A stretch of 64,000 nt of DNA from a virus. Below the pieces are notes generated by a model. The model ran no database searches. It worked only from the letters and a program-made list of their open reading frames with translations, and had not been told where the DNA came from. Positions 2,666-53,782 of the stretch are shown in pieces (positions within the stretch are counted from its first letter, which is position 1; the number at the start of each line of letters is the position of its first letter). Made by a program: the position numbers and the translations under genes. The stretch covers positions 15,214 through 79,213 of the IMG/VR virus record IMGVR_UViG_3300032093_000074; one strand, written 5' to 3'.

Positions 2666-3289
2666 CTAGCGCTTCGGTTGACGCTGGGGCATCAGAACCC
2701 CTACGAACCGGTGCGGACCTTGCACCGACTCAACCCGTGTCGGTTTCGTATCGTGAACCGCCACCATCACCGCCCCGTCGGTTTTGCCGGCGAAAACCTG
2801 GGCAGACTTGAAAAGGTCCGCCATGTGGCCCCCGTTAAAACATGCGGGGAGTGTCGGCGGGTTGTCTGCCATTGCAAGAATCGAAGCGCAGTTAGGCGAC
2901 TCACCCCACAAAAGCGGGAGAGTGCAGGACGCTTTGAAAGTGGAAAGAGCCACGAACCCTTCCGATTCATCCACCGCAAAACCTACCGGCGTGTCACGCT
3001 TTTCCGGATTCTTTAAAGCAGCTTTCACGAAGGCGCTCAGAGTCTTCACCGCATCGGCGGGCAAAACCATAGAACCGTTACGGTTCATAAAAGCATCGTG
3101 CGCCGATGTCTCTAGTTCTACTGAATGCAGACGGTACGAATCGGTAGCCCACACTCTCGCCGTCTCTGCTGGATGCATCTCAAAGTGAAGCGCATTCAAC
3201 ATGGGCCGATTCTTTTCCGAAGACATGGCAGGCGTGACCGCTCCCAAAATGTCGGACAGTAGCCCCGCCCGAAAATCGATAACCAACAT
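2666..3289 (-). CDS. DNA polymerase III beta-clamp-like protein (about two of the three DnaN domains)
   Basis: RPMLNAL...WATDSYRL...VLPADAV...FNGGHM...GVLMPQR resemble DnaN central and C-terminal motifs. Confidence 0.75.
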   Translation of the reverse strand: MLVIDFRAGLLSDILGAVTPAMSSEKNRPMLNALHFEMHPAETARVWATDSYRLHSVELETSAHDAFMNRNGSMVLPADAVKTLSAFVKAALKNPEKRDTPVGFAVDESEGFVALSTFKASCTLPLLWGESPNCASILAMADNPPTLPACFNGGHMADLFKSAQVFAGKTDGAVMVAVHDTKPTRVESVQGPHRFVGVLMPQRQPKR

Positions 3290-3333
3290 TGTTAACCCCT
3301 TTACTTTCATGTAGTGCCCACGGTGGGCACCGT

Positions 3334-3373
3334 CCCTGTCCCGAATCGAATCGGCACGCCCAAGGCGACAGGG
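3334..3373 (-). ncRNA. anticodon-less tRNA-like element 3 (variant)
   Basis: Minus strand CCCTGTC / GCCTTGGGC / GTG / CCGA-TTCGAT-TCGG / GACAGGG. Confidence 0.55.
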
Positions 3374-3511
3374 GGAGCGGGTCTGTTATTCGGCAGTGAA
3401 CCCTACCGAATCCCCACACGATGCGCACACGGTAGCGGGTGCATCACCGTGACACCCATCCCATCCACCGTAAATGGCTCCTGTATCGGCCACTCATTGC
3501 CGACACCCCCA

Positions 3512-3540
3512 ACAATACCGAATAGTCGGACTATTGACAA
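3512..3540 (-). promoter_or_regulatory. SigA-like early promoter with palindromic spacer
   Basis: TTGTCA-17-TATTGT on minus strand; inverted repeat AATAGTC-G-GACTATT at 3521-3535. Confidence 0.65.
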
Positions 3541-4197
3541 GGGGGAAATAGCAAATATTCCCCACCCCAAAAACCAGGATTTTGCCCCCCAAGATTCGAA
3601 CCCCCCACCCTCCCGCACCCCCACCTGCCTGCCTTCCCACCTTGTAGGCGCACCTTCCCGAAACATACGCACCCCCTCCGCCGGTACCTTTCTGATTGTT
3701 GCCGTCCCCGTGTCCCCCGCTACCTGTGCCCGCCTGCCTTTTGTTTCGGACCCGCCCTGCCTGTCCCCGTTGCCTGTCTGCCGGAGCGCTCGGGCTGCAC
3801 ACGCAACCGGCCAAGTGCCGAGGCACCCCCCTGCCAATATACTTATTATCGGTTCTGTATGTGTTCACACTAGGTTTGGTATCAACGAAGTTGATACCCT
3901 GGGGGGTTTGTGGTTGGTTTTGTGGTGTTGTATTGCTTGGTCGAGTTTGTATTAGTGGGTTTTGTATTAGCTTGCGGGCGTGACGGCTGTCACGTGGTTG
4001 GGTGGCCGGGGTGTCGAACATGCGGCTTATTGGCAGAAAAAGAAAAAGTTGCCAAAAAGAAAAAGGTTGTATCCGACCCGGCGTTGTCGGCCAGCCTGCT
4101 TTGTTGCATCCTGGTAGCAACCGAGCTTGCGAGGGCGGTAGCCAGCGGCATTCATGCTGTTCGGCTTGCGTCTTGCCCGCTGGAACAGCAGACAGGC

Positions 4198-4463
4198 TTC
4201 TGCTCCCCCCACGCTTCGACACTCTTTTGAGAGCATCCGGTGGCCGTTAGCTATCTTCAAGCCGACACCGTACAAATCCTTTTTCTCCCCCTCGACGTAT
4301 CTGTTGCGCTACCGTTCTATGTCTCGGTACTAGGTTCTTCAACAGGCGTTTTTTGCATGGGAGGGCGGTCCCCGTTTCCGGCCATATACACCCTTCCCAC
4401 CTCCATGCTCTGCGATGGGGTCCGGGTCATGCTTGCCCTGTCGCTTCCCAGCGAGGGGGACTT
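4198..4463 (-). ncRNA. candidate structured ncRNA, copy A (homologue at 50592-50851)
   Basis: Colinear conserved blocks with the B copy (41-nt identity 4354-4394 = 50740-50780), covarying stems, G.U pairs and a GAAA tetraloop that favour the minus strand. Confidence 0.75.
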
Positions 4464-4536
4464 ACTCGATTAGATGACCGACACTTGAGACGTAAGCCAG
4501 ATGGCTGTCACAGAGGTGCCGGTCGTACCGACATTG

Positions 4537-4567
4537 ATAGTAGCAGAACCGTATGGTATGTTGTCAA
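4537..4567 (-). promoter_or_regulatory. promoter reading into ncRNA copy A
   Basis: TTGACA-19-TACTAT with TGn extended -10; spacer is long. Confidence 0.55.
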
Positions 4568-4573
4568 CTACAC

Positions 4574-6550
4574 ATGGGGACTAGACGGATAGTTTCAGAC
4601 GCAGACAAAGCCCGCTACTGGGCTGCACGACAGTCCGGCATGTCACAGAAAGATGCCTCCAGAATCGCAGGCATCCACTTCAACACCGCCTCCAACTGGG
4701 AAAAGAAACGCTCCGAAACAAAAGCAGCTCTAGAACTAGCACAAGTTGAAGGGAAACAACACCGCAAAAATCAGGGTGGGAACCAAAACGATTCAATGAA
4801 ACTGTTGGCAGACTCACTCGAACTGCCCCCAGCTATACCCCACGACCGGCTCTGCCCCGAAGCAAAACGAGGGTTGGAGGACTTCGACTTTTTCAGAACC
4901 TACTATTTGGGGCGTGTCCCATCCCCTTGGCAGGTTGAAGCCGCATACAAGATTGTTCAATATCTAGAATCCCCTGAGAAAGAGTTTTTGGTGCTGAACG
5001 TCGCACCAGGCGCAGGCAAATCCACCCTATTCCACGATGTTGCTGTGTGGTGCATCGTCCGAAACCGTGCGATTCGAGTCCTCTACGGCTCTATCTCCCA
5101 AAACCTTGCGAAAATGTATTCAAGACGTATCCGAGACACGTTGGAACGCCCAACAGCTTTGGAACCCGACCCCGAACTGGTGAAGAAGGGGCTGGCAGTC
5201 AACGCTAAAGGCTGCCTATCTCTTGACTATGGCAGGTTCAAACCGGCATCGACAGGTGCTTTGTGGAGGGCAGATGAGTTCATTGTGGAACAGGACATTG
5301 TGGGCAACCTTGACAACAAGGAACCGACAGTCCGAGCGTACGGTATTGACGCCGAGTTCATCGGTCACCGAGCAGATTTGTGTCTTTTCGATGACGTTGC
5401 CTCTACAGAGAACGCCCGAGAATCAACTGCCCGAGACAAACTGTTGGAACGTTGGGATTCGATGGCGGAAGCCCGAGTTGACCCAGGCGGTCTGCTTGCC
5501 GTCATCGGACAGCGGTTGGGGCCGGGCGACCTGTACGCACATTGCCTATCTAAAGTCACATATGATGACGACGACTACGAATATGATGGTTCAGACGTAG
5601 AAAACCCGGAGGATATCCGTGCGGAACCCACTAAAAGGTCCAAATATCATCACATCATCTATCAGGCGTATTACCCCGAGCTTGATACGGGCAAAGAATC
5701 TCGTAGTGTTTCTGCCCTACCGTTTCCGAAAGGACCCCTTCTAGACCCTGTACGTCTTTCTTGGAAAGATTTGTCGTACATCAAATACTCTAACCCCACC
5801 ACTTTCAGGGTTGTGTACCAGCAGGAGGATGCGGCTGACGAATCCTATTTGGTGACACGCACCATGCTGACCGGTGGGATGGGCGACGACGGGGTTCTCT
5901 ACCAGGGCTGTATCGACAATGACCGGATGCCGGGGCAAATACCGTACGGGTTGGCCCCCCCGATTATTTCTATTGTCTCAGTAGACCCGTCACCCACCCA
6001 GTTTTGGGCTTTGACATGGATGCTGTACCAGCCTGACACCAACCTGTACCACATCATCGACGTTGAACGAACCAAACTGACTGCTGAAGGATTGTTGGGG
6101 TTCAACACAACCACCGGTGTGTATAGCGGGATGATGGAGGAATGGCAGAACCGGTCATGGTCTTTGGGGTATCCGATATCGCATTGGGTGGTGGAAATCA
6201 ACGCCGCCCAGCGGTTCCTGCTCGCCCACGACTTCATCCGCAAATGGCAGTCTTTGCATGGGGTGAACGTGGTCCCGCACACCACTTCTAGAAACAAGCT
6301 TGACGAAAACCTAGGTGTGGAGGCTCTGCTCCCCCCGTTGGTGCGTACCGGCGCTATGCGGTTCCCGTCGATGCGGGGCAACTGGAAGACGATGGCTGCG
6401 GTTGACGAACTATGCAAGTGGACCCGTGACAAAAAGAACGGCACCGACATTGTGATGAGTCTTTGGATGGGTGTACTCAACCTGCCGAACCTGACCCAAA
6501 CGAAGGCTCCGCCCCGTCTGTGGCGTCCGTCGTGGATGCTTGAACGCTGA
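4574..6550 (+). CDS. terminase large subunit with N-terminal HTH (phage A)
   Basis: Walker A APGAGKST, Walker B LCLFDD, nuclease VSVDPS and C-terminal DIVM; directly upstream of portal. Confidence 0.9.
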   Translation: MGTRRIVSDADKARYWAARQSGMSQKDASRIAGIHFNTASNWEKKRSETKAALELAQVEGKQHRKNQGGNQNDSMKLLADSLELPPAIPHDRLCPEAKRGLEDFDFFRTYYLGRVPSPWQVEAAYKIVQYLESPEKEFLVLNVAPGAGKSTLFHDVAVWCIVRNRAIRVLYGSISQNLAKMYSRRIRDTLERPTALEPDPELVKKGLAVNAKGCLSLDYGRFKPASTGALWRADEFIVEQDIVGNLDNKEPTVRAYGIDAEFIGHRADLCLFDDVASTENARESTARDKLLERWDSMAEARVDPGGLLAVIGQRLGPGDLYAHCLSKVTYDDDDYEYDGSDVENPEDIRAEPTKRSKYHHIIYQAYYPELDTGKESRSVSALPFPKGPLLDPVRLSWKDLSYIKYSNPTTFRVVYQQEDAADESYLVTRTMLTGGMGDDGVLYQGCIDNDRMPGQIPYGLAPPIISIVSVDPSPTQFWALTWMLYQPDTNLYHIIDVERTKLTAEGLLGFNTTTGVYSGMMEEWQNRSWSLGYPISHWVVEINAAQRFLLAHDFIRKWQSLHGVNVVPHTTSRNKLDENLGVEALLPPLVRTGAMRFPSMRGNWKTMAAVDELCKWTRDKKNGTDIVMSLWMGVLNLPNLTQTKAPPRLWRPSWMLER

Positions 6551-9208: not shown

Positions 9209-12200
9209 GTGGCGTTTCGCATAGCCCCAGACGAGGAAGAAGCAATCCTTCGGGGGATGAGAAGGGAAGCGGAATCCAAAAACCAAATCCGCACCAATAT
9301 CCGCCCCGAAACTTCAGACAAAATCTCTGAACTTCACAAGAAATATCCGTGGCTTTCCCCCGGTGTTTTGCTTGCCGCATCTAAAGGCAATGTGTCGCAA
9401 GAACTTTTGGATGCGATGTCTGCCTCTATCGCTACGATGGCGAACGAGGACCCCGATAAGGCGAACGGTAAAGATAAAGGCAACTGGTTTAGTAGTGCTG
9501 TGAAAGGTGCGACACGTTTGACGTTCGCAGCTTTTGACACATCTAAAGAACTGTTTCAAAACATTGTTGCCAAAACCCCTATCCCTGTCGCAACAGAATA
9601 TGTTGGGGCGAAAGTCCAGCAGGCAACCGGTCAAACTGAGGCAGGTTACGGCGGTCCGAAAGCTTCCGATATTGCGATAGTGAACGATGCCGCTTCACGG
9701 CAAGGCGAAGGCGGTTTCGGAGAGTTCATCGGCTCAACCACTTTGGCGTCTCTTGCCCGCAACTGGGAGAATCAAGGTAGCGGATATTTTGTGTCCGAAA
9801 ACATTGTGCAGGAACAGCGGGAACGTGCCAAAAAGTTTCGTGGCACAACCCAAGGAGGCCACGCATGGACCCCTGGCCGCGGGTTCGCTGGCATGGTTTT
9901 CAACGAGGACAGTTACGCATACAACCTGATGTCAGGTTTCGTTGACGGGGCTGTCGCAGTCAAAATCCCTGTCGCCCCAGGTGTCGCTTTCGGGTTGACG
10001 AAAGTCAGCGAACTCGCCGCAGCTGACGACGCCGGAGATGTTTTGAGGCAGGCTGGCCGTGTCGCAGACACTCTGCAAGGCCGTGGGCAGGTCATCAAAA
10101 TATCGGACATGACTGGCGAAGAACTGCGTGAGGCTCGACGCTTGGCAGGTTTGGTTGGCGACACGGTAGATGTTGAACAAGCCAACGCTTTCCTCGGCAC
10201 CCGTGCCGGTCGCCGTCTTGTTGAACGTCTTGTAGACGCAAACACCACAGACGACGTTCGACGGCTTTTGGGACGCAACCTGTATGCAGACACGGTAAAA
10301 CAGTTGCGTGACGCCAAAAACGAGTTTGAGGTGCAAGCAGTTTTGGCCGACGTTTTGGGCAAACCGCAGGCAGGTTTGGCAAGCACTAAAGGCGTTAAAG
10401 GTGTCAAAAAGGTTGCTTTATCTAACGCCCGCAGGTTGAAGATGATGGAGTCTTTAGACACTCAGGTCGGGTTGAAAATCAAACGTGGACTCGGCTACAA
10501 ACCTGGGCGCATGTTTGACATGTCTTCCACCAACCCTGCCGACGTTCGACGCACTTTGAACCAAATAGATGACTGGGCTAAAACCACGTTAATGGACGAG
10601 GAAACCCGTCGCACGTTGCTAGACAAGGCTGTTGATGCGATGGTTGGGGACACCGCTACCCCCACCGCCCGTAAAGCGTTCAAAGAAGAATTTGAGCAAA
10701 TCGCTGTTGATTCTTTGGTGAAAAATAGCAATGTTGACAAAAATGTTGCTGCTGTTGTTTTGCTGACTATGCCCACAAGAATGAAAAAGGTCACCAAATG
10801 GGCGCTCGGCCCTGACGGTGTGCCGGACGACGCAGGGTTTCTTAAGAATGCGACACGGGTAGGCGACGACGTTGTTGACGACGCATCTTTCGGTGGGGCG
10901 ATGCTGAGTTCTGAACTCGCAGATGTCATTGTAGAGATGCCGGACCCACGGCAGGTTCGAGCAATCAGTAACCGCTTCAACAAGATTTGGCGGTACAAGC
11001 CAAAAGATGTTGGCCCGTTGAAGGACGCAAACCTTGAAAGACTTGCGAAGGCTGGCACGTTGCGTCCCCCGTTTTCAGCGGTGATGTGGGCGCAAGACAA
11101 ACTGTTCCGCCGACTCATCTTGATGACCGGTGGCTATTCGGTGCGCAACCTTACCGAAGCCCAACTCCGCATCGCTTTGTCTTACCGAAACGTGGAAGGC
11201 GTTTTTGACCACCCCGCATCATGGCTTGGCTGGGCCACCCACAAAAAGGGCGCTTTCGACATCACCGGCGAAGCGTTTGACTACAACACTCTTACCGACA
11301 ATATGCGCACATTCCGTGAAGCGGTGCAGGCAGAAAACTTCACAGACTTCGGTGACCCCACTATCGCTTACCGTCGAGGAAAAAGAATCGGCTACTTTGA
11401 CGAGGTTGACCGCACCGACCCCCAGCAGTTCGACTTGGTTGTTGAGGCGCACGGTGACCAAATCGGGTTGCTTAACGCCGACCCTGTAGCCCGCCGTGTT
11501 GCTGGCGGGGCAACAGACGAAGAAATCCTTGTGTTTCTGCGCACCGACCCTGAAGGTAAGGCTTGGTTCCGTAACCAGCAGGACTATCACATTAACGGTC
11601 GTCCAACATTTGAAAAGACAACCCGTGGCTACAAGCATGTCGGCAACCAGCAAGTTGACCTGAATGTTGAAGAAAACCTTTTGCTTCACATCAAAGAGAT
11701 TCGCACCCGAATCGAATACCAAACTGGTGGCGATACCCGCCTAAAGAACGTCATCGCCCAAGGCCAGTTGCCTGTTGAAACGGTTGTTATCGCTAACCAA
11801 ACTGTTGCTGGGCGACCTCTCGGTGCGCTTATCAACAAAAACGATGAGGGCCAAGCCCTCATGCTGGAATACAAGGTCCCTGGAAGCAACCGTCCAGGCA
11901 CCCGACAGGTTCGAGTTCAGTCGGTGGACGAAGCAACCGGCGAAGCGGTTGTAGTCCCATTCGCTTTTGAAAGAGGCGAAGCAAGCCTTGACCTTCGCAA
12001 ACTGCTGGAAGCAGACGACGTTTACTACAACCCGAAACTCACAGAAATCCTGCCACATGAGATTCGAGTTGATTCTTTGAAGGAACGCCCGTGGGACGCT
12101 GGGTGGGACGATATGACCGACAGAGCGTTCGCTTTCCTTTACGGCAAACCTTCCCGCTACTTGGACCGGTCACCGCTGTTCCGCCAGTTCTACTACAGCA

Positions 12201-13996
12201 TGGCTATAGACCAGTTGCTCACCTCACTAAGCATCGACGACGCAATCCGTTTGCACGACAACATTGTGGAATCCGCCGCAAAAGTGGGACGCAAACCCGA
12301 GTTTTATTTGGGTGACAAGAAACGCTGGCAACGCATCCAAGACGCCAAAGACGGCAAACTCCCTATGCAGGGCACATTGACTTTAGAAGAAGTAGACGAC
12401 TTTGCTAAAGGTCAGGCTTTGGACGAACTCAAAGGTTTGCTTTACGACGCCAGCAACGTGCGAAACTCTATGGACGCCGCCCGAGTCGTGTTCCCGTTCG
12501 CTAACGCTTTCGTAGAGTTCTACAAATCTATTGGCCGTGCCTACACAATGCCGACGCTGACCGGTGTCCCTCTGCCAAACCTAAAGTCTCTCCGCAAAAC
12601 CCAGTTGGTTGTTGACGGCGGGCGTGATGCAGACCCAGACGGTGACGGTCGAGGGTACTTCTTTGTGGACCCCGAAACACAGGAATGGTCATTCACCTAC
12701 CCAGGCTCAGGGTTTATTACTAAAAGCCTACTGGGTTTGACAGCCCCTCTGACCGCCCCTATCGCTGGCGCTTTGCAAGGTGTCGGGTTGAGCGAAGGCG
12801 ACTTTTTCGGTTTGAAAACTAACCCAGGTTTGGGGCCGGTAGTTAACGTCCCAGCATCCTTCATGTTTTCAAAGGTTCTCCCCGACACAGATTTTGTTCG
12901 GTCTGTAGAAAAGTTTTTTCTCCCATTCGGCAAAACCGAGTTCACCACAGAAACAGGTGGGGTTGCTTCCGGGGTTGTCAAATCTTTTCTCCCAGCTTGG
13001 TCCACCAAAATCATGTCAGCGGTGTTTGACGACCCGCAAAGCCTTACCGCTTTTGGCAACGCCGCATTCGAAACCCGCCAAGCGTTGCTTGCTACCGGCG
13101 AATACGACTTGAACAACTTTGAATCCATGAAACAGTTGGAGGAAGACACCAACTACAAGGCCCGCTGGTTGACGGTTATTCGTGCAGCAGGCCAGTTCAC
13201 CGGTCCTTCCCGCCCAAGTTCAGAGTTCAAAACCAAGGTGATGGACGGCGATGTCTACATCAACCAAGCCATCGCAGACCTTCGTCGTTGGCAGTTGGAA
13301 GATTATGATTCTGCAATCTTGCGGTTCTTGGACACATACGGAGACGACTTTTGGGCATATCTCGCTCGCAAAACTTCTACCGGAGAGTTTGAAGCATTGG
13401 GCACCAGCGCCGACTTCGGTTCATGGGAACGAGACAACCCCGATTTTCTTCGAGAGTTCCCGAACGTCGCATCATATTTCGCCCCTGTCGGAACCGGCTT
13501 TGACTATTTTGTCTACACCGGCCAAATCGGTAAAGGTATGCGCCGCCGAGAAACTAACAAGGCATCGTTTAACGCAGCCCAATACTATGTGGTTGGTGCG
13601 CAGATGCGTCTCGCCAACAAGCTCATCGGAGACAACCCGACCCCTGAGCAAGAAGAAGAACTAGACGCATACCGTAAAGCCCTCGAATCCGATTACCCTG
13701 GGGCAAAATCGTATCCTTTCAACCCCAACAAACTACCCAACCAAATTGAGGCTTTATACAGCGCTGCTTTCGTATCAAGCATGGACGGCAACCCTGTAGC
13801 GGAAGGCACCCGCCTCTATCTGCAACAGCGGACCAACGTCTTGGCGCAGGTTGAATCAACCGGTCAAGGTTTGGGTGCTAAAAAGAACCTTGAATACCGC
13901 AACCTTTTGCGGGCTTCAGCAAACATTATTATTGAAGAATACCCAGAGTTTGAACGTCTTTGGGAACGTGTACTTTCTAGAGAACTGGACCGCTGA
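9209..13996 (+). CDS. large internal virion/ejection-type protein (1595 aa)
   Basis: Size and position in virion operon; no tail-tube or assembly-chaperone genes seen. Confidence 0.65.
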   Translation: MAFRIAPDEEEAILRGMRREAESKNQIRTNIRPETSDKISELHKKYPWLSPGVLLAASKGNVSQELLDAMSASIATMANEDPDKANGKDKGNWFSSAVKGATRLTFAAFDTSKELFQNIVAKTPIPVATEYVGAKVQQATGQTEAGYGGPKASDIAIVNDAASRQGEGGFGEFIGSTTLASLARNWENQGSGYFVSENIVQEQRERAKKFRGTTQGGHAWTPGRGFAGMVFNEDSYAYNLMSGFVDGAVAVKIPVAPGVAFGLTKVSELAAADDAGDVLRQAGRVADTLQGRGQVIKISDMTGEELREARRLAGLVGDTVDVEQANAFLGTRAGRRLVERLVDANTTDDVRRLLGRNLYADTVKQLRDAKNEFEVQAVLADVLGKPQAGLASTKGVKGVKKVALSNARRLKMMESLDTQVGLKIKRGLGYKPGRMFDMSSTNPADVRRTLNQIDDWAKTTLMDEETRRTLLDKAVDAMVGDTATPTARKAFKEEFEQIAVDSLVKNSNVDKNVAAVVLLTMPTRMKKVTKWALGPDGVPDDAGFLKNATRVGDDVVDDASFGGAMLSSELADVIVEMPDPRQVRAISNRFNKIWRYKPKDVGPLKDANLERLAKAGTLRPPFSAVMWAQDKLFRRLILMTGGYSVRNLTEAQLRIALSYRNVEGVFDHPASWLGWATHKKGAFDITGEAFDYNTLTDNMRTFREAVQAENFTDFGDPTIAYRRGKRIGYFDEVDRTDPQQFDLVVEAHGDQIGLLNADPVARRVAGGATDEEILVFLRTDPEGKAWFRNQQDYHINGRPTFEKTTRGYKHVGNQQVDLNVEENLLLHIKEIRTRIEYQTGGDTRLKNVIAQGQLPVETVVIANQTVAGRPLGALINKNDEGQALMLEYKVPGSNRPGTRQVRVQSVDEATGEAVVVPFAFERGEASLDLRKLLEADDVYYNPKLTEILPHEIRVDSLKERPWDAGWDDMTDRAFAFLYGKPSRYLDRSPLFRQFYYSMAIDQLLTSLSIDDAIRLHDNIVESAAKVGRKPEFYLGDKKRWQRIQDAKDGKLPMQGTLTLEEVDDFAKGQALDELKGLLYDASNVRNSMDAARVVFPFANAFVEFYKSIGRAYTMPTLTGVPLPNLKSLRKTQLVVDGGRDADPDGDGRGYFFVDPETQEWSFTYPGSGFITKSLLGLTAPLTAPIAGALQGVGLSEGDFFGLKTNPGLGPVVNVPASFMFSKVLPDTDFVRSVEKFFLPFGKTEFTTETGGVASGVVKSFLPAWSTKIMSAVFDDPQSLTAFGNAAFETRQALLATGEYDLNNFESMKQLEEDTNYKARWLTVIRAAGQFTGPSRPSSEFKTKVMDGDVYINQAIADLRRWQLEDYDSAILRFLDTYGDDFWAYLARKTSTGEFEALGTSADFGSWERDNPDFLREFPNVASYFAPVGTGFDYFVYTGQIGKGMRRRETNKASFNAAQYYVVGAQMRLANKLIGDNPTPEQEEELDAYRKALESDYPGAKSYPFNPNKLPNQIEALYSAAFVSSMDGNPVAEGTRLYLQQRTNVLAQVESTGQGLGAKKNLEYRNLLRASANIIIEEYPEFERLWERVLSRELDR

Positions 13997-32496: not shown

Positions 32497-35400
32497 ATGG
32501 CCCAGTACACGCCGCCCCCCACCGCCCTGCCTGTTGGGCCGGAAGGGGGGAAAGGTAAGAAGCGTCTTAAGCCTCTGACCACTGGCCCCGCCGCCCCGCC
32601 AGCACAACCAGTCACCACGGTCCCAACGGTCCCTGGGTCTGCGCCACAGTTGCGGCCACCAGTTGCCCCCGCAAAAAAAGAAGACGAAGGCGAATGGTCT
32701 TGGGAAAATGTTGGCAAAGCTTTCAGTCCACAGAAATCTGCCGACTTCTTGGCCAACGCCATTATTGCGGCCCCCGCAGCTGTCTTCGGCCTTGGCACGG
32801 GGCTGTTCAAGGGCGGGGATAAAAAAGGGACAGAAGGCGGCAGCCTGTCGATCCCAACAAAGGTCTTCCAAGCTCTTTTGGGGACGTCCTTCGGTCCCAT
32901 CGCTTTAAGCGAAACTGGCGAAGAATACTCCGAATCTCTTGCTAATACTTTTACTGGCAAAAATATCCGTCTTGCTGGGCAAGCGATCAAACGCGGCGAA
33001 ACACCGCTCCCATACCTTATGGAAGACGCAGGTAACGCTGCGATTGTTTTGGGCGGTACAGGAGCCGTGCTGAAGGGAGCTAGCGCCGGCGGCCGCATTT
33101 CGGCAGCAGGGGCTGCCCGTCTCAATCGTGTTGGCGCAAAGGTCAGCAAGGCAGCCAATGTTGCTGACTGGATTGGCGATGCCCCGATTCGTTTGCCCAT
33201 CGAAGCAGTCAGCAAATCCGTTAGCACAGCGGGCAAATACGGGCGTTACAAAGCTAATAATCTCCGCGCCGAAGCAGCCCGGCGCGAGGCGCTTGACCCG
33301 ATGGACCCCGAGGTCATGAGCAAACGAGCAAAAGCGAACCGGCTTGAAGCCCGTTGGGGTAAAGAAATTGATCGTGGCGGGATAGTGACCGTCGTAACCC
33401 AAAAGTTGCTTGGCACCGGCGTTGGCAGGGCTGTCCTTAGAGCGAACAAAAACGGCACAAAGATCGTTCGTGAAATGACTGAAGTAGCGGACAAGCCCTT
33501 GTTTTGGGAAGACCTCGGGCCAATGACGCCCGAAGAAAATCAAGCAGTCTTCGCAATCATCAATGGCCGGGCTGCGCTGATTGAGGAAGTCGCCCAACGA
33601 ACCGGGCAAAGCGTTGAGTACATCGCCGAAATTGGGCGGTACAACTTCGAGCCAGGCTATTCGTTGACGCCAGCAGGGGCCCGCATGGCATCCGATTATC
33701 TCAATGGCCGCCTGTCCCCCCAGCAAAGTTCACGCATCCAGGATGCTGCCCAAAAAGTGTCGGCACGTTTGGAAATCCAAACCGAGCAGGCCCGTGGGGG
33801 GTATGGCCGCAAAACCCCACTGACCCCTTCGTACGATATTCCGTTCCCTAGCCCCGACAAGTTCGCGGATGCGATGGCCCGCATTGGTCGCTCCGACGTA
33901 GCAGAAGAAATCGGGGCGTTGTATGAATCAGGCTTCTTCAGCGATCTCCAAGATCCGCGTGTCATTGAATACATGAGGGCCCGAGTTGAGGCAGCGCCAG
34001 AATCCGTGGCCCTTGACTCGACGCTGTACCCACCCAAAGAGCGCAACAACGTCGAGTTTTACAAACGCGTCCGAGAGGCCCTACTCGCTCAAGGCGAAGC
34101 GACTATTGCTGGCTTCCCCCGGCCGCCAGGCGACATGGGCGGCCCGTCAACGGGTGTCCCGCCGCAAGACTTTTATACAACCAACAAATATCCTGGCGAC
34201 CTCGTTCGGACCCCAGCACAGAACATCAAACGCAGTATCAAAATCTTGGAGCGTTTGCGTGGCAAGAATCGCAAACTGGCCGAACAGATTGTCGACGCCG
34301 AGCTGCGTATCCGCAAGCTTGAGTTCATAGTCATCAAAGCCCAATACAAAATCGGGCAGCTTGCCGGCTACTACACCGACGCTGACGGCAACCTCGTCAG
34401 CCCGGATTCCCCGGAAGCCACCAACTATGTGCCTGGCATGTTGGAAAAACTCCAAGCCGAACGCAATCGGCTCAAAGCAATCGACGACGAAATGCGGGCT
34501 ACGCAATCCGACAGCACTGTCGTCAACGGGGTCATTGTCAACCGCGAACTTGTAGAAGAAAATCTTGCTGTCGTCGAAGATGGCATTGCTGCTGTTGAGG
34601 CTGGCATTGCGGAGCTCGAAGACCAAATCGACACCGCAACCGCAGAAATCGACGCCGAAGAAGGCCGCCAGATCGACGCTGGTGACCAGCTCGATGAAGC
34701 GGGGGAGAACCCTGATGAGATCATCGCGGCGGCCAAAGCCGACGTTGAAGAAATCCCTGGCGACCCGGACGCCTACTCCGAACTAGCTCCGACCGACGAG
34801 CAGATCGCCGCGCTGCAAGATGAAATCCTCGACTTGGAATCGGCGATCAGCACGAACGTGGTCGACCTGCGAAAACTCGACATAGAGATCACTAACGCCA
34901 AGCTCACCCGTGATGACGCCAGCAAAACGGTTGAACCGGAAACCTTGGCCGCAGCCCCGGCAGCCGAAGGCTTCATTTCCGCTGACCAACTACTTGCGAT
35001 TCTTGAAAAGGCTGTCGCAGATAAAACGCTTCCAGCAGAAGTCATCGACGACGTCAAACAACATCTCGACACAACCTATGTAGCCCCGACAAAAGACAAA
35101 GAGATTGCCAAAGCAGCAGACGAGGTCCTGTTGTCTGCAAAAAACGGCGGGTACAGAAACTCCGGCGGCTACCCCGCATTGGTTTCTAACGTCAATGGCG
35201 AACTTTGGTTCAGTAACGGCTACATGGCAACGAAAATCCCCGGTGGCTCCAAAGCAGCAGAACTGTTCAAAGAACCTGGCAGGTACACCGACCCGTGGGG
35301 ACAGACCCTCGGGTTCAAAACTGTCGGCGGCCGCACAACTATGGAGCGCACGATAGGCGACACGACCTATCGCATCGAAGAAAACGTCGTTGGCAAAACT

Positions 35401-38400
35401 AAAGACGGCAAAGACAAGAAAAAATACACGTTGTCGCAACTCGACGCGGACGGAAATGTCGTTGCGGGGACGCAGCAGACGTACGGTTCTTTCAGTGCAG
35501 CGAAGGACGCGGCCCCCAAAGCCCCAACGTCCGAAGGCCCAGACTTCCAAAAGCTCATTGACCTGGCTAAAAAAGCCAAAACAGACAAACAGCCCCCTGC
35601 GAAGATCGAAGGCCAACGTATTGCAACGGTTACGTTGGACGGCAAGCCCACGCAAATAACATTCGTGTTTTTGCGACGGCCGGACGGCCAGCTTATGTTC
35701 GCCGACCAGCAACAGTTCAACGTCGTGTATAAGGCCGGCGACACTGTTCACCTCCCGATAGAAGACAAAGCGTCGATCATCATCAAGCGGGATGGCAACA
35801 TTATCGGCTTGGTGATGCCGTTCCGCAACCAAGAGCTATTCACCAAGGTTGAGAACCCGCTGTCGCCGGACACAATCGCAACTCAAATCGTCCGAGAAGG
35901 CAACCTCCCTGATGACATTGTCGCGGCATTGTCAAGGACAGCTGAAGGCCCACGTTTGGCAGAACCAAAAGCAGTTGGAGCCACCGATGCCGAAATAGCT
36001 GCTTTGGAACAAAAGATCGCCGACCTTGAACAAATCAGGACTAACCTCGTCGCCGATACAGTCAGCCTGCGCGATGCCCTCGACCAGACTCGCTCCGAAC
36101 TTGAAATCATGCGCGAGGAAGCTGCTGCGGCAACGCAAATACAGGGTGCGTTAGCGCCGCGCCTAAAGCCTGTCGAAGCACCTACCGACGTTAGAATCGC
36201 GGAAGCCCAGGCCCGCGTCGACCAACTAAAGCAGGATCTCGACGCTAAAGAAGCGGCCGCAGTAGAAGCGCAAAAGAAAGCTGATAACCTAGCCAACCTC
36301 AGCGACGAGGAAGGCCTCAGCGTTGCAGAACGCCAAAAGCGGCTAGCCAAGAGTGTCAAAGCCGACAACGCTGCAAAAAAGCTAGAAAATGCTGCTGACG
36401 AGGCTTGGGTAACGCACCGTGACGCAGTTGCCGAACTTGAGGCGTTGAAAGCAGGAAGCGCCGCCGGCCCTGTTGGGCCGCCACAAGGGTTTGTGCAAGT
36501 TGATTCGGTAATCGCGGGCACCGAGTTGCCTGAAGCATTGGACCCACCAGCACTCGAATCAACCGGGCCTGCTCCTAGCGCCCTCAACGAATCCGACTGG
36601 ACCAAGATCGACGACAACAACTGGTCGATCAACACTGGCTATCGTTCGTACCTAGCCACGCGCCGCCAAGTCGGTACGACGAAAGCCGGCAAACCCCAAT
36701 ACCGCTTCATACTTAAGCGTTACGGCAGCGACGGCCTGCCCATCGAATCGACAGCGCAAGAGTTCACGAACTTCAAACAGGCCCGCAAGGTTGTCGACGA
36801 AGGCCTGCAATATGACCTAGCAAACCCCGTCGCGGAACGGCCAATCTTCCGGCCAGGCCGCGAGCTCACAGCCGGCAGCGGCAATGTCCTGTCTACGGCA
36901 CCCGAATTGATCCGCGCCGAACAAAAACTTGCGTCAGGAATCCAACGCCTAAAAAGCCTGGAACGTACCAAAGAGCGTGCGACCGCCAAGGTCGACAAAC
37001 TCCGCGTCGACCAGGCAGCTCGTCGCGCCCGACTCAGCCTTCTTACCTCGGCTGAAGTGCGAGCCGAAGCTCGCCTCGGGAAAGAAATCGTCACCCAGCC
37101 GGATGTCGCCGTTACGGGCCAAGGTCCAACCGGCCGCGTGTTCATCGGCCAAGAAACAGGGGCCCCAAGTGTTGCAAGGCCGCTGTCGGAATCAGGAGTC
37201 CCCGTTGCTCCTGGAGAAGGTTTCCCAGCGATGCTTCGGCCGACAGCGCAGACTGTCCGTTTCGTCGACGAGACAACTCGCCAGATCAATGAGGTTGAAG
37301 CTGCACAGGGCGCAGCCATCGAGGATCGCACTCGCAATGTTGATGTGGTTGTCCAATCAATCGATGCAGCGAACCTGCGCCGGAGGACACAGTTGCCGCC
37401 AGGGTTGCCCCTCCGTTCCGCGCTCAACATGCCCCGTGCTGAAGGTCAACCATTTATTGGCAGCCAATATGCCCCCGCCGGCCGCCCCACCAACCGGACG
37501 CAAGGTGCAATCGTCGAGATCCAGGAAGGCTTGATCGGCGACACAAAGGCAAGTAGCGAATACTTCCGCGAAGGAACTACTGAAGAAATCTACGATCCGA
37601 TTGTCCTCGCCAACCGTCTCGTTGCCGAACAAATGAACCTCGACATGACCGAAGCCTTCCGGTCACTGATGCGTTCAGCTATCACAGTCAACGCAGAGGA
37701 ACTGCTCGGGCGTGACGTTGTGCAAAACCTGCGTAAGGAAGCATACGACCGTGCCTACAGCTGGGCTGGCGGCCGGCCGGCCACCCCCGAGGGTGTTGCT
37801 GCGTATGCCGAAGGGCTGCCGAACCGCGCTGCTGTTGCCGCACGAAAAGAAGCAGAAATCTATGGCGACCTCATCAACAAGGAAATGGAAAAGCAAGGCT
37901 TTGTCACGCTGCCGCTAACTGGGCGCATCGAACGCGGTGTGCCGACCTACGAAATCGACGAAAGCACACCTTACCTTCCTAAATACACCCGTGAGCGCGT
38001 CATGCGGAAAGCGACCGTCTACAACCCTGATGACATGGGCATCTATTTGAGGACTGCTTCGCGCGTTACGACCGGCTTCAAAAATCTGACATTGCCATTT
38101 TCGTTCCAATGGCAAATCGGCGACATCCTCGGCATTTTCATTTCGGCTGCCGTGTCTGGCGTTAACCCGCTAACACTTGGCAACTACATGGTCGACTCGC
38201 TGCGGGCTAACTACGGTGGCCCGAACGCAACGCGCGGCGAAATAATCCGCAACGTTTTCCGCGAAGCTGACAAACGGGGCACCACGCGCATTGGCGAAAT
38301 CCTTGCCGAATCGGGCCTCCAGGACGTCGGCCTTCGCATTGGCGAACAACAACGCCTGCGTGGGTACCGTGACGCACCCGAGCGGATGACAGTTCCCCAG

Positions 38401-39465
38401 CAGTTTTTACGGGATTACACGCCAAACATCAAAGGCGACTTTAATGTCGGCGACATCATCCCAACCTGGCGCAAAGGGATGTACCGCGTCAACGAAGCGA
38501 TCAACCGCGTCGGCCGTCACGCGTTTTTCCTTGCCAAGTTCCAAGAAGCCATTGACGGGTACAACGCCCGCAACGGGACGAGTCTGACTGCCGAAAGTGC
38601 GCTTGAGGCGGGGCTCCACGAAAAGCCCGGCCCCATCCGTGATGCCTTTGAAGATACTGTCGACAGCGCAAACGACGTCATGGGTGACTGGATGGGGTTG
38701 TCACCGCGCGAACGTAAGTACATCCTGCCGAACGCCACCTTTTACGCATGGATCAAACACATCCACAAGCTGTTCCTAAAAGTCGCCAAGGAAAACCCGA
38801 GTGCGATCAAGTGGTACGTCTATTTGGGCAACTTTGCATACGACCCCGATACCGACCCGTTTGACCTGTACACCGACAAAATCTCTTTGCCTGGCGGTTT
38901 CCTGGCCGGCAGCAACTTCATGAACCCGTTTGCCGACGTAGTCGGCGGCCCGATTGGCCGCGCCATTGTGAAGGGCGACCCATCGTCACTCCTGTCCCCA
39001 CTGTCCCCACTTCCCCGCATCCTGGGAGCAGGATTCCTTGGTGAAAACTTGCCACGACTCAAGGATGTGTCGAGGCCCTACGGGACGGGATCGGTTGGGT
39101 CCACCGGGACCGAGCGCAACACGATGTTGTTCCGTCGTCCCGAAGAACTACTGGGCTTCTCGTTGCAACAGTTCCCCATCGCCACCCGAGTCTTGGACAT
39201 TCTGCCCACTGGCACCATCCCAGGGACAAATATCCAAACCGGCCCATACCAACGATACGACACCGGCCAGGCGCGGCTGCGGCCAGGCACTTTGGACATG
39301 GTGCCCAAAGCCGGTGGGCGCGCCGTTGCAGCAGCTCGTCTTCTTGGCCTGCCCTTCCTGCCCACGGCGACAAGGCAGCAAATGTCTGACATCGAACGCA
39401 CCGCTAAGGAACGCTTGGTCGCGTTCGAAGAAGCACAAAAACGTGCCAAAGCACTCCAGGGGTAA
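32497..39465 (+). CDS. giant multidomain internal virion/ejection protein (2322 aa)
   Basis: Last of the ejection-type cluster; coiled coils flanking inserted globular domains. Confidence 0.7.
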   Translation: MAQYTPPPTALPVGPEGGKGKKRLKPLTTGPAAPPAQPVTTVPTVPGSAPQLRPPVAPAKKEDEGEWSWENVGKAFSPQKSADFLANAIIAAPAAVFGLGTGLFKGGDKKGTEGGSLSIPTKVFQALLGTSFGPIALSETGEEYSESLANTFTGKNIRLAGQAIKRGETPLPYLMEDAGNAAIVLGGTGAVLKGASAGGRISAAGAARLNRVGAKVSKAANVADWIGDAPIRLPIEAVSKSVSTAGKYGRYKANNLRAEAARREALDPMDPEVMSKRAKANRLEARWGKEIDRGGIVTVVTQKLLGTGVGRAVLRANKNGTKIVREMTEVADKPLFWEDLGPMTPEENQAVFAIINGRAALIEEVAQRTGQSVEYIAEIGRYNFEPGYSLTPAGARMASDYLNGRLSPQQSSRIQDAAQKVSARLEIQTEQARGGYGRKTPLTPSYDIPFPSPDKFADAMARIGRSDVAEEIGALYESGFFSDLQDPRVIEYMRARVEAAPESVALDSTLYPPKERNNVEFYKRVREALLAQGEATIAGFPRPPGDMGGPSTGVPPQDFYTTNKYPGDLVRTPAQNIKRSIKILERLRGKNRKLAEQIVDAELRIRKLEFIVIKAQYKIGQLAGYYTDADGNLVSPDSPEATNYVPGMLEKLQAERNRLKAIDDEMRATQSDSTVVNGVIVNRELVEENLAVVEDGIAAVEAGIAELEDQIDTATAEIDAEEGRQIDAGDQLDEAGENPDEIIAAAKADVEEIPGDPDAYSELAPTDEQIAALQDEILDLESAISTNVVDLRKLDIEITNAKLTRDDASKTVEPETLAAAPAAEGFISADQLLAILEKAVADKTLPAEVIDDVKQHLDTTYVAPTKDKEIAKAADEVLLSAKNGGYRNSGGYPALVSNVNGELWFSNGYMATKIPGGSKAAELFKEPGRYTDPWGQTLGFKTVGGRTTMERTIGDTTYRIEENVVGKTKDGKDKKKYTLSQLDADGNVVAGTQQTYGSFSAAKDAAPKAPTSEGPDFQKLIDLAKKAKTDKQPPAKIEGQRIATVTLDGKPTQITFVFLRRPDGQLMFADQQQFNVVYKAGDTVHLPIEDKASIIIKRDGNIIGLVMPFRNQELFTKVENPLSPDTIATQIVREGNLPDDIVAALSRTAEGPRLAEPKAVGATDAEIAALEQKIADLEQIRTNLVADTVSLRDALDQTRSELEIMREEAAAATQIQGALAPRLKPVEAPTDVRIAEAQARVDQLKQDLDAKEAAAVEAQKKADNLANLSDEEGLSVAERQKRLAKSVKADNAAKKLENAADEAWVTHRDAVAELEALKAGSAAGPVGPPQGFVQVDSVIAGTELPEALDPPALESTGPAPSALNESDWTKIDDNNWSINTGYRSYLATRRQVGTTKAGKPQYRFILKRYGSDGLPIESTAQEFTNFKQARKVVDEGLQYDLANPVAERPIFRPGRELTAGSGNVLSTAPELIRAEQKLASGIQRLKSLERTKERATAKVDKLRVDQAARRARLSLLTSAEVRAEARLGKEIVTQPDVAVTGQGPTGRVFIGQETGAPSVARPLSESGVPVAPGEGFPAMLRPTAQTVRFVDETTRQINEVEAAQGAAIEDRTRNVDVVVQSIDAANLRRRTQLPPGLPLRSALNMPRAEGQPFIGSQYAPAGRPTNRTQGAIVEIQEGLIGDTKASSEYFREGTTEEIYDPIVLANRLVAEQMNLDMTEAFRSLMRSAITVNAEELLGRDVVQNLRKEAYDRAYSWAGGRPATPEGVAAYAEGLPNRAAVAARKEAEIYGDLINKEMEKQGFVTLPLTGRIERGVPTYEIDESTPYLPKYTRERVMRKATVYNPDDMGIYLRTASRVTTGFKNLTLPFSFQWQIGDILGIFISAAVSGVNPLTLGNYMVDSLRANYGGPNATRGEIIRNVFREADKRGTTRIGEILAESGLQDVGLRIGEQQRLRGYRDAPERMTVPQQFLRDYTPNIKGDFNVGDIIPTWRKGMYRVNEAINRVGRHAFFLAKFQEAIDGYNARNGTSLTAESALEAGLHEKPGPIRDAFEDTVDSANDVMGDWMGLSPRERKYILPNATFYAWIKHIHKLFLKVAKENPSAIKWYVYLGNFAYDPDTDPFDLYTDKISLPGGFLAGSNFMNPFADVVGGPIGRAIVKGDPSSLLSPLSPLPRILGAGFLGENLPRLKDVSRPYGTGSVGSTGTERNTMLFRRPEELLGFSLQQFPIATRVLDILPTGTIPGTNIQTGPYQRYDTGQARLRPGTLDMVPKAGGRAVAAARLLGLPFLPTATRQQMSDIERTAKERLVAFEEAQKRAKALQG

Positions 39466-49754: not shown

Positions 49755-49987
49755 ACCGCGCCCAGGCCCTCCAGGCCCTCGACGTGGCCCGCCTCCACCT
49801 CGACGGAATCGAACTAGACTTAGCAACACTCGTCGACCTAGTGAACCTGTCGGACCTCATGAAGACACCGGCCGCCACCCTCGACGAAGCACACCGCAGC
49901 CGCCTCGAAGCCATCGAGCGGGACCTAGCGGCAGCCCTCGACGCCACCAGGGAGGCCCGCACCAACCTCGACCAGGGCGAGCACTAA
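49751..49987 (+). CDS. hypothetical early protein
   Basis: GTGA coupling. Confidence 0.6.
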   Translation: MNRAQALQALDVARLHLDGIELDLATLVDLVNLSDLMKTPAATLDEAHRSRLEAIERDLAAALDATREARTNLDQGEH

Positions 49988-50591
49988 CCCAACCCGCCAG
50001 GCCCGCACCAGGGCAACACACCACGAAGGCCCCGCACCAGGAGAAACACCAGGCGCGGGGCCTTCCCCATTCCCGCCGCCACCTCGACAAGCGCCACCAG
50101 CGCCACCAGGCCGCCACCACAAAACACGCCAGGCCGGCACCCGCCGAAATAATCGAGCGGCCGCACAGTGTGAGCCACTTGGGCCCAGGTCGACGCCGGC
50201 CCGCTTTGCCCTGGCCTCCCCCGCCCACGCTCGACGCACCCGCCGGCCGCAGGAAGGAGAGGCACCCCACTCGACGGCCAGCCCGTGCCCGCACCCGCCC
50301 GCCGCGCGCCACCCCCCTCCCCATGGGGGGACCCCGTGGGGTACGTTGTATTACATCCTCCCGTACGTTTGGGTTGTAATTTTTTGGCCCTTGACTAGAT
50401 GCCCTGTGATGGTATTGCATCATGTTTGTTTTGCTCTTGAGGTGAGGGGTTGCCCAGGTTGTTTGGGGGTACTTGGGTGTGTTCGTTGCAGGTGTGCCCT
50501 CGATGCTTGTCAGCAAGGCCTTTGGGCCGCGCTAGCCCAACGAGCCGTAGGCGAGGCGGGAGTGTCCACGTCTCGTTCCTGTGACCCAGAT

Positions 50592-50851
50592 TTCTTGCTC
50601 CCCCCACGCTTTGACAGTCAAGCTGTCAGGTGGCCGTGGCATTTTTAGCCGACACCTGTTTGTTTCTTCTTTTACCCCTCGACGTATCTACCTGGGGGTC
50701 GTTCTTTGTCTCGTTACTAGACCTGCCAGGAGGCGTTTGTGCATGGGAGGGCGGTCCCCGTTTCCGGCCATATACACCCTCCTGCTTCCATGCTCTTTAT
50801 CGCAGGGTTCGGGTCGTGGGTGCCCCAGCTGCTTCCCAGCGCGGGGGACTT
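50592..50851 (-). ncRNA. candidate structured ncRNA, copy B (homologue at 4198-4463)
   Basis: Colinear with copy A; minus-strand 5' CCCCCGCGCT can pair with 3' AGCGTGGGGG. Confidence 0.75.
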
Positions 50852-50866
50852 GATCGGTTGGCCGCC

Positions 50867-50895
50867 ACTCTATAGGTGGGGTGTCTGTTTGTCAA
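50867..50895 (-). promoter_or_regulatory. promoter reading into ncRNA copy B
   Basis: TTGACA-17-TAGAGT on minus strand. Confidence 0.7.
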
Positions 50896-53293: not shown

Positions 53294-53782
53294 ATGAGCG
53301 ATCACGAACAAGGCAGCGACTACCCGATTCCAGTCAACGAAATGGTTGCGTCGTACGAGTTCACGAAGGATGACAAGCCCAAAACCCGCAAAAAGGGCCG
53401 CCAAGAAGGCAAAGACCTGACTGTTGTGGACTCTAGCGAATATCGAGTACGGCAAGACCAGATCGCCAAACTTGGCCTGTCCAAGGTCATCAAAGGCATC
53501 GAACGCGACCAGCTGCCCGAGATCGCCCTGTCAATCATCGCAGATCACGGTTTGCGGGTCCTCGGCGGCGAATGGGAAGTCCGTACCGCTGAAGAAGCCA
53601 CCAAAATCGGCAAAGTCTGGCATGACATCTTCCGACTAGAAATGGGCGAACCGACCAGCATTTCGTCAAGCCAGGACTCGGAAAGCCCCGAGCAGCGCAA
53701 AACCCGCTTTGAGGAACTGAAACTCGAAGCGAAACGCCGTACCGAAGGCAACTTGCGGGCCATCGCCGGCGACGCCGGATGA
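53294..53782 (+). CDS. putative terminase small subunit (B)
   Basis: GGAGGT RBS; coupled directly to TerL. Confidence 0.6.
   Translation: MSDHEQGSDYPIPVNEMVASYEFTKDDKPKTRKKGRQEGKDLTVVDSSEYRVRQDQIAKLGLSKVIKGIERDQLPEIALSIIADHGLRVLGGEWEVRTAEEATKIGKVWHDIFRLEMGEPTSISSSQDSESPEQRKTRFEELKLEAKRRTEGNLRAIAGDAG

Follow-up and report, generated by a model that had tools for sequence, protein, structure and literature searches.

Does one and the same folded RNA stand beside two unrelated packaging modules in a single virus record, and if so, what could it be doing there? The question is raised by a window of 64,000 nucleotides (nt), bases 15214-79213 of the 79,213-base-pair IMG/VR virus record IMGVR_UViG_3300032093_000074, in which positions 4198-4567 had been marked from the letters alone as a structured non-coding RNA with a second copy some 46 kilobases (kb) further on. 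We find that this element is almost certainly a real stand-alone structured RNA gene. Below we give the evidence for its fold, its strand, its promoter and its family, and then weigh what it may do.

A covariance-model search of the window, together with a check of the whole record, showed exactly two copies of the element. These two, A and B, align colinearly, both on the minus strand, and the shared blocks named in the original prediction were found where it had placed them, including an identical block of 41 nt (4354-4394 in copy A, 50740-50780 in copy B). The 370-nt span 4198-4567 was not upheld as one conserved unit: it contains a conserved core of ~264 nt, the rest being promoter and a leader of ~65 nt specific to copy A.

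4201-4464, minus strand: conserved RNA core, copy A (covariance-model match 4188-4464, 212 bits, E 1e-57; exact blocks)
50596-50852, minus strand: conserved RNA core, copy B (covariance-model match 50583-50852, 224 bits, E 6e-61)
4201 and 50596: exact shared block TGCTCCCCCCACGCTT
4239 and 50629: exact shared block GGTGGCCGT
4260 and 50647: exact shared block AGCCGACACC
4288 and 50675: exact shared block CCCCTCGACGTATCT
4443 and 50831: exact shared block GCTTCCCAGCG
4455 and 50843: exact shared block GGGGGACTT

Nine helices and one pseudoknot are supported. The helix names (P1-P12 and PK1) are our own, and the order is that of the minus strand, 5' to 3'. The element opens with CAAG and P1, followed by a joining segment GCAAGCA, P2 around P3, P4, and P5, which encloses P5a and P8; after P5 come an A-rich linker, the 3' domain P10-P11, P12 and an invariant tail.

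4436-4459, minus strand: P1 hairpin with a GGGA (GNRA) loop; pairs covary
4390-4427, minus strand: P2 (ACCC/GGGU) around P3 (CCCAU/GUGGG); P3 94-99% paired, all five pairs changing on both sides
4408-4403, minus strand: 5' strand of PK1, GCAUGG, in the P3 loop
4367-4383, minus strand: P4, GG-CCG-GAAA-CGG-(GGA bulge)-CC, a GNRA hairpin; inner stem 100% paired, compensated
4289-4365, minus strand: P5 (CCCUC 4365-4361 / GAGGG 4293-4289) around P5a (ACG/CGU) and P8; covariation
4355-4360, minus strand: 3' strand of PK1, CCAUGC, pairing with the P3 loop; 96% paired on the structure-blind alignment
4301-4345, minus strand: P8, an arm of variable length; 91-95% paired
4238-4270, minus strand: 3' domain P10-P11, GGUGUCGGCU...ACGGCCACC; closing P10 pair covaries (A-U, C-G, G-C, U-A)
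4218-4237, minus strand: P12, a variable hairpin; all six pairs change on both sides
4203-4216, minus strand: invariant 3' tail AAGCGUGGGGGGAG (family form AAGCGUGGGGGG(AG)), without a partner
50823-50847, 50776-50814 and 50753-50769, minus strand: P1, P2/P3 and P4 of copy B
50628-50657, 50613-50627 and 50596-50611, minus strand: P10-P11, P12 and tail of copy B

The fold is carried by covariation. On alignment A2, made with MAFFT and blind to structure, 88.1% of cells are paired, against 74.8% in shuffled and 29-45% in slid controls, none of the 500 shuffles reaches the observed value, and 40 of the 56 pairs change on both sides. The same pattern is seen on two model-fitted alignments, a kind that leans to the model, of 63 viral and 76 metagenome sequences; on all three the covariation exceeds every one of 500 shuffles and all the slid controls, which bears out the claim of a functional structured non-coding RNA. 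Folding of single sequences is uninformative (z-scores of -1.0 and -2.5). Around the helices lie ~60 near-invariant nucleotides, placed in the junctions and the 3' tail.

Three of the hairpins had been proposed from the comparison of the two copies, and all are real and vary in a compensated way across the family. P12 corresponds to the hairpin preceding the G-run, and P8 to the stem GTTG/CAAC of copy A (CCTGG/CCAGG in copy B). The CCG-GAAA-CGG hairpin is P4, whose inner stem also occurs as CCA/UGG and CCU/GGG and whose outer GG/CC becomes GA/UC, G.U pairs being found there as well. P5, the 3' strand of which (GAGGG) lies ~70-100 nt beyond its C-rich strand, appears as GACCUC/GAGGUC, ACUCC/GGAGU, AUCCCUC/GAGGGAU and ACCUCU/AGAGGU, and P5a as GAG/CUC and CUG/CAG. 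The pseudoknot PK1 has at least ten distinct complementary versions, for example UGACAGAU/AUCUGUCA, GAUGAAUA/UAUUCAUC and UGACAAUGGG/CCCAUUGUCA, and in 22 of 43 distinct sequences the pairing is better than 95% of loop shuffles. In the 3' domain the inner nucleotides are invariant in all 76 sequences, so that the pairing drawn for them is an assumption of the model; the invariant GGCC within this domain is self-complementary. Members differ in their outer parts. P1 is replaced by another hairpin (CCGC-AAA-GCGG) in some and is missing from the compact ones; P3, P4 and the 3' domain persist both in type II members and in the compact type III (~150-180 nt). PK1 is retained by type II as UUGCA/UGCAA, and a partner for PK1 was looked for in the compact members and none was found.

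A switch between alternative folds, in which the 5' C-run would pair either with the 3' G6 tract or with an internal CGAGGGG, did not survive. The C-run is the outer stem of P1, covaries locally and is missing where P1 differs or is absent; CGAGGGG pairs instead with the C-rich segment after P4, forming the strongly covarying P5; and the model leaves the invariant G6 tract unpaired. Neither the C-run after P4 nor the one at the 5' end was accepted as a partner for this 3' G-run, since P5 and P1 give both of them covarying partners of their own. Several further candidates failed. Members with GUGACCG in place of the first strand of a long-range helix GUGGCCG/CGGCCAC retain CGGCCAC, and it is the local P4 pairs that compensate. 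A helix closing the 5' leader on the 3' trailer or extension reached p ≤ 0.05 in 3 of 54 members, which is chance, and variants of the joining segment J1/2 (GCAAG) are not compensated by CUUGC in the trailer. Copy A repeats ACCGCCCUC as possible co-changing 'twin boxes', but across members only the core copy varies, and the one in the trailer does not change. Mimicry of 16S rRNA by the tail, AAAGCGUGGGG, was a lead only and gave no small-subunit rRNA match at E ≤ 10.

The RNA strand is the minus strand, as had been proposed, because G.U and U.G pairs exceed A.C and C.A pairs there by 204 to 60 and the tetraloops are GNRA only on that strand. The element does not code for protein: stop-free frames differ in strand and in frame among members, and lengths spread evenly modulo 3. 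The TTGACA promoter said to read into each copy is present for both A and B. Most of ~55 distinct upstream regions across the family have a TTGACA-like -35 box, a spacer of ~17 nt and an extended -10 box TGnTAnnnT, which in most members ends 13-16 nt before the CAAG that opens the core. In copy A, as in member L051, the -10 box ends 72 nt before the core. The copy A promoter was read by eye and with our own scan; the program scan admits only spacers of 16-18 nt and missed this one of 19 nt.

4537-4567, minus strand: promoter of copy A, -35 TTGACA (4567-4562), 19-nt spacer, -10 TACTAT (4542-4537)
50867-50895, minus strand: promoter of copy B, TTGACA-17-TAGAGT; 10 of 12 matches, -10 ending 14 nt before the core
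4465-4530, minus strand: leader of ~65 nt specific to copy A, from the presumed start site to the core
4114-4143, minus strand: conserved imperfect hairpin in the 3' trailer, GCUACCGCCCUCGC...GCUCGGUUGCUACC, with conserved flanks ACCGCCCUCGC...GCUCGGUUGC
4037-4064, minus strand: twin U5CU5 tracts (plus-strand AAAAAGAAAAA twice, 15-17 nt apart)
3850-4020, minus strand: tract rich in C and A and poor in G (RNA sense), ending in an abrupt skew switch near 3850; the pattern is family-wide

On the 3' side, the trailer hairpin recurs in many members, others having a plain GC hairpin flanked by CGC...CUUGC. Twin U5CU5 tracts lie 80-250 nt past the core in about a quarter of the members and are not a canonical terminator according to two scans; a terminator scan of the window gave none. 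Across the family, the RNA-sense strand is C-rich and G-poor for 150-400 nt past the core, after which the skew flips; in copy A the plus-strand GC skew changes near 3850 from -0.55 to +0.57 (within 3400-4050), with short repeats (ttgtattag) in the G/T-rich part. Sense strands of the record are C-rich throughout, and we therefore read the flip as the end of a leftward RNA unit, which possibly ends by Rho-dependent termination.

The element belongs to an uncatalogued RNA family of which the window's copies are the founding member. The claim that it lies outside known families agrees with all our searches. None of the 4227 models of Rfam 15 matched the window at gathering score, among them GOLLD, ROOL, HEARO, packaging RNA (pRNA), raiA and 6S as well as RNase P, tmRNA, group I and II intron and riboswitch models, and at E ≤ 10 over 3900-4700 there were only two chance matches, both outside the element. 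ARAGORN found neither a tRNA cloverleaf nor a tmRNA (a tRNA-like domain with a tag reading frame) in the window, blastn against the 50,697 cultured-phage records of INPHARED gave no relative, and a search of the accessible literature turned up no described RNA matching the family. A sample of 154 Actinomycetota genomes (3 + 151) contained no match to the covariance model. The 101 matches of a 17-mer from the centre of the 41-nt block in GTDB genomes, which might have been bacterial copies, were rejected as chance, nhmmer giving no real match.

Among uncultured viruses the picture is quite different in scale. This 17-mer matched 27 viral contigs, nearly all alignable over 40-280 nt. Two pattern scans, whose counts are lower bounds, went further: over 116 viral contigs contain a two-block pattern taken from the 3' domain, and over 115 metagenome contigs a three-block pattern of 26 bases. 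The covariance model, R1, gave 81 matches in IMG/VR viral loci and recognised 79 of the 80 metagenome contigs tested. The longest family contig is ~43 kb, and the window's own sequence is present in independent lake and freshwater runs of several studies from 2017 to 2025. The family is thus carried by hundreds of uncultured freshwater phages and is abundant in several lake studies. Three ORFs (open reading frames) with WhiB domains lie in the window; since whiB is an accepted marker of actinophages (PMC6802176), the carriers are probably phages of Actinobacteria.

The record itself needs a word of caution. Its two copies stand 46.4 kb apart, each beside a different packaging module, and in two independent runs contigs end at 4365, inside the 41-nt block, one of the loose ends reading on as copy B; in a third run a contig of 962 nt covers 3647-4608 without any difference. 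With relatives of 38-43 kb carrying a single copy apiece, and with assemblies interrupted within the 41-nt block, the 79-kb 'complete' record is probably made up of two phage genomes, each of ~40-46 kb, fused at the conserved RNA. The original description of an element shared by 'both phages' therefore holds for the two copies and their different modules, and less well for the record, probably a concatenation of ~40-kb genomes. The RNA finding is left intact by this, as it rests on more than 150 other sequences. The breaks make the RNA a branch point in assembly graphs, with the practical effect that conserved RNA blocks break or mis-join phage assemblies, as this record probably shows.

The genes around the element are of unequal constancy. 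Its upstream, opposite-strand neighbour is almost always a packaging module of one of two unrelated types, either large terminase (TerL) cluster 0 with its portal or the module of clusters 3, 7 and 4, a few members lying elsewhere; downstream there are assorted small ORFs of both orientations, which are not conserved. The two copies of the window exemplify both types, and their terminases differ as had been stated:

4553-6550, plus strand: large terminase of 665 amino acids (aa) with an N-terminal helix-turn-helix (HTH), divergent from copy A and followed by the portal (phrog_38, E 4e-62; weak HTH_3)
53779-55380, plus strand: large terminase of 533 aa in the unrelated module by copy B (Terminase_3, Terminase_6N, Terminase_6C), preceded by a WhiB-fusion protein and a 162-aa ORF without family match

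To the left of copy A, after ~900 nt of non-coding DNA, come minus-strand ORFs at 2666-3310 (clamp-like) and 2185-2565. Two further minus-strand ORFs downstream of the copies, at 3494-4222 and 49857-50516, have low-complexity translations rich in R, G, W and P without a family match and are probably not genes, which leaves non-coding regions of 0.6-0.9 kb (3310-4200 and ~49990-50595). At the start of the annotated terminase ORF of unit A there is an overlapping promoter-like sequence, TTGATA-17-TATGTT with an upstream TG (4534-4562, plus strand). Translation may in fact begin at the ATG at ~4574, in which case the mRNA would be near-leaderless, as is common in Actinobacteria. Elsewhere in the window are two giant plus-strand ORFs, one of 2322 aa (32497-39465) without a Pfam or PHROG match and one of 1595 aa (9209-13996) without a Pfam match.

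Presence of the RNA does not follow the terminase. Each of five genomes that are 97-100% complete, of 38-43 kb, has one copy, whereas ten loci with TerL 64-66% identical have none within 0.9-3 kb, even with filters off, and the RNA is missing altogether from two relatives, one 100% complete with direct terminal repeats and one 90% complete. Being absent from complete relatives with a similar terminase, the RNA is accessory: a self-contained module with its own promoter. Four RNA-less relatives (L258, L259, L260 and L278) have another conserved stretch of ~250 nt, GGGGCGGCCTCAGTCGGTCGAGCAAACGCTCCCGGCTGGGGCCGC, in its place, ~100-350 nt upstream of TerL and overlapping a 153-aa minus-strand ORF, which may be coding or another RNA. 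The protein clusters specific to RNA-less genomes include one that appears, from its motifs, to be metallophosphoesterase-like, and an analogue occurs in RNA genomes too.

What, then, could the RNA do? Its position next to long non-coding DNA brings replication to mind, the transcript or its transcription priming or activating an adjacent origin in cis, as in ColE1 RNA II or the promoter-origins of T4 and T7. The RNA is indeed transcribed into the non-coding regions described above (a 219-aa minus-strand ORF in that of copy B looks spurious), the skew switches abruptly ~350 nt past the G-run with a similar pattern across the family, and words like a DnaA box, TGTGGACAA/TTGTCCACA, which we take to be the actinobacterial consensus, cluster 50-230 nt past the core in ~17 of 60 members, some as tandem pairs. 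These words are several-fold denser there than in structural genes (for example in L022, L036, L047, L048, L099 and L128). Immediately to the left of copy A there is a clamp-like ORF, and among the searched unit A ORFs only RecT-like, RusA-like and ferredoxin-like proteins were recognised and no polymerase, primase, helicase or initiator. The core ends in an invariant G6-7, and in many relatives a run of C5-6, CGGCAGACCCCCGGTT, follows at a distance of 135-345 nt. We nevertheless regard such a role as improbable. Complete and near-complete relatives of the same terminase lineage do without the RNA, and the window's two copies have neither a DnaA-like box nor a CGGCAGACCCCC box. G-rich RNA favours stable R-loops and C-rich, G-poor RNA the opposite, and the trailer is of the latter composition. 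The skew switch is more simply a boundary between the leftward RNA unit and the rightward genes, a genome-wide V-shaped skew is absent, and primer RNAs need neither ~60 near-invariant unpaired nucleotides nor a pseudoknotted core. Its place beside the terminase-portal module in nearly all members, transcribed away from it, could also suggest a packaging RNA, a part of the motor like the pRNA of phi29 or of terminase recognition at a cos or pac site. Conserved GC-rich boxes 135-345 nt downstream in many relatives are candidates for cos, and TerL cluster 0 has a fused N-terminal HTH with no separate small terminase recognised. This we consider very unlikely, however, as near-identical RNAs accompany two unrelated sets of TerL and portal and so do not co-evolve with the motor, the relatives with 64-66% identical TerL lack the RNA entirely, the promoter appears to be of a host type, constitutive or early rather than late, there is no match to the Rfam pRNA model, and contigs read through the putative cos boxes. 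In relatives such as L010, L040, L063 and L115 the box CGGCAGACCCCCGGTT(G) follows an AT-rich, TATA-like word and a G-run able to pair with the C-run, and this box may represent cos, a further promoter whose leader forms a hairpin, or something else.

The start of the RNA directly after its own promoter, with the two minus-strand ORFs (2666-3310 and 2185-2565) downstream of copy A, would also suit a cis-regulatory leader of leftward genes, whether an antiterminator like put of HK022 or a riboswitch. The odds seem to us just as poor here: the downstream ORFs are unconserved and often on the opposite strand, which is why we do not take the RNA for a leader, copy A is separated from the next minus-strand ORF by the ~900 non-coding nt, copy B has no credible co-oriented ORF downstream, and neither an expression platform, a start codon nor a terminator adjoins the invariant tail. 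Hardly credible, finally, is a view without any functional RNA, in which what is conserved is a DNA site (terminase, cos or protein-binding) or else a small protein. There are several invariant blocks, and the element lies where cosB-like sites would be expected, but at least 40 pairs show compensatory double changes, G.U is tolerated and A.C is not, helix arms are longer in some members than in others, reading frames do not agree and lengths are not divisible by 3; the covariation brings this explanation close to refuted.

We therefore return to a separately transcribed, pseudoknotted phage RNA. Host RNA polymerase would transcribe it from the sigma-70-like promoter without phage factors, and so probably early. 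The transcript would fold on its own, with two GNRA loops, one pseudoknot and near-invariant junctions and tail, and would work in trans, an accessory 'RNA moron' that either binds a partner common to all carriers, most simply a conserved host macromolecule, or catalyses a reaction. The RNA stays constant while the virion genes around it change, as would suit a product that is catalytic or encounters one common partner, most simply a host component, whichever phage carries it; this constancy fits poorly with a part of the packaging motor or with an indispensable replication element. An obligate phage protein partner is not indicated either, since no protein cluster tracks the RNA among eight genomes with it and three lacking it. 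Action in trans on a conserved, probably host, partner is a reading that we hold tentatively, its chances falling somewhat short of even. The statement as a whole, that is a separately transcribed, pseudoknotted, accessory phage RNA that acts in trans on a common partner or is catalytic, we consider evenly balanced.

Several observations weigh against it. None of the runs listed for this DNA is an RNA run, and the element is known here from DNA sequence alone. The 'host-directed' part of the reading draws solely on the RNA's conservation across different modules and its accessory distribution. The comparison by which protein partners were sought, where blastp found no cluster present in all eight RNA genomes yet absent from the three RNA-less ones, had only those three to set against the eight and the sensitivity of blastp. 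Canonical intrinsic terminators, which would mark the 3' end, lie downstream in 4 of 61 members in the sense direction and in 6 of 61 in the antisense direction. Furthermore, the RNA hardly ever leaves the long non-coding region close to the packaging genes, where further blocks of DNA are conserved as well, and with so fixed a setting a cis role at a genome end or origin is conceivable.

In kind, this lake RNA comes nearest to the orphan ornate phage RNAs, of which GOLLD (RF01998) and ROOL (RF03087) are examples. These too are stand-alone phage non-coding RNAs with covarying helices, pseudoknots, GNRA loops and conserved junctions, of unknown function and found mainly in metagenomes, including those of lakes. 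The features by which large ornate phage RNAs are recognised as a kind are present in the lake RNA, which has covarying helices and a pseudoknot, is phage-borne and non-coding and, judged by its promoter, appears to stand alone. GOLLD and ROOL form RNA-only multimers in cryo-electron microscopy, according to a preprint (bioRxiv 10.1101/2024.12.08.627333). The lake RNA has no sequence or model similarity to either, measures 150-280 nt against their 500-800 nt, and is found in WhiB-encoding freshwater phages near packaging genes.

Likeness to the other known systems is more partial. The phi29 pRNA gene lies at the left genome end, beside the packaging end, with its own promoter and transcribed away from the structural genes, an arrangement much like the present one next to packaging genes. 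It belongs, however, to protein-primed phi29-like phages with an ATPase that has no terminase nuclease, while the lake phages have classical large terminases of two kinds, and the lake RNA does not match the pRNA model, is independent of the terminase kind and is dispensable in relatives. Hybrid formation by ColE1 RNA II involves a G-run of the RNA together with a C-run of the DNA, and there is a resemblance in the promoter-driven folded RNA that points toward a non-coding region and in the G-run with a downstream C-run; the lake RNA differs in its G-poor trailer, its absence from complete relatives and a conservation far above the needs of a primer. The putL and putR RNAs of HK022, two hairpins of ~70 nt that act in cis on their own operon, are also folded phage RNAs immediately after a promoter, but a conserved co-oriented operon is absent at the lake RNA. 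A survey of structured RNAs in IMG/VR reported 14 candidates upstream of large-terminase genes, 29-151 nt in length (mean 67) and described as cis-regulatory (PMC10690425). They share the data source and, as described, differ from the lake RNA in length and in the cis role; a candidate among them could still be a fragment of this RNA.

When a large RNA surrounds its covarying helices with so much unpaired sequence that never changes, it is usually a ribozyme, a ligand sensor or the core of a ribonucleoprotein (RNP) machine, and to our knowledge few such classes come from phages. At its boldest, the finding would be a new class of catalytic RNA, or an RNA-only or RNP machine, of lytic freshwater actinophages, expressed early to cripple a conserved host function or make use of it, which we think unlikely but conceivable. 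If true, its targets might be such as translation, RNA turnover or an immune nuclease, and the invariant junctions and the exposed G-rich tail would be the active or binding site. The RNA is compact (~150 nt in its minimal and ~270 nt in its full form) and comes with natural structural variants, so it is tractable for probing, cryo-electron microscopy and pull-downs. As an accessory element that is not tied to the virion module, it is a candidate agent of RNA-based host takeover or counter-defence, which, if true, would be a new theme for actinophages.

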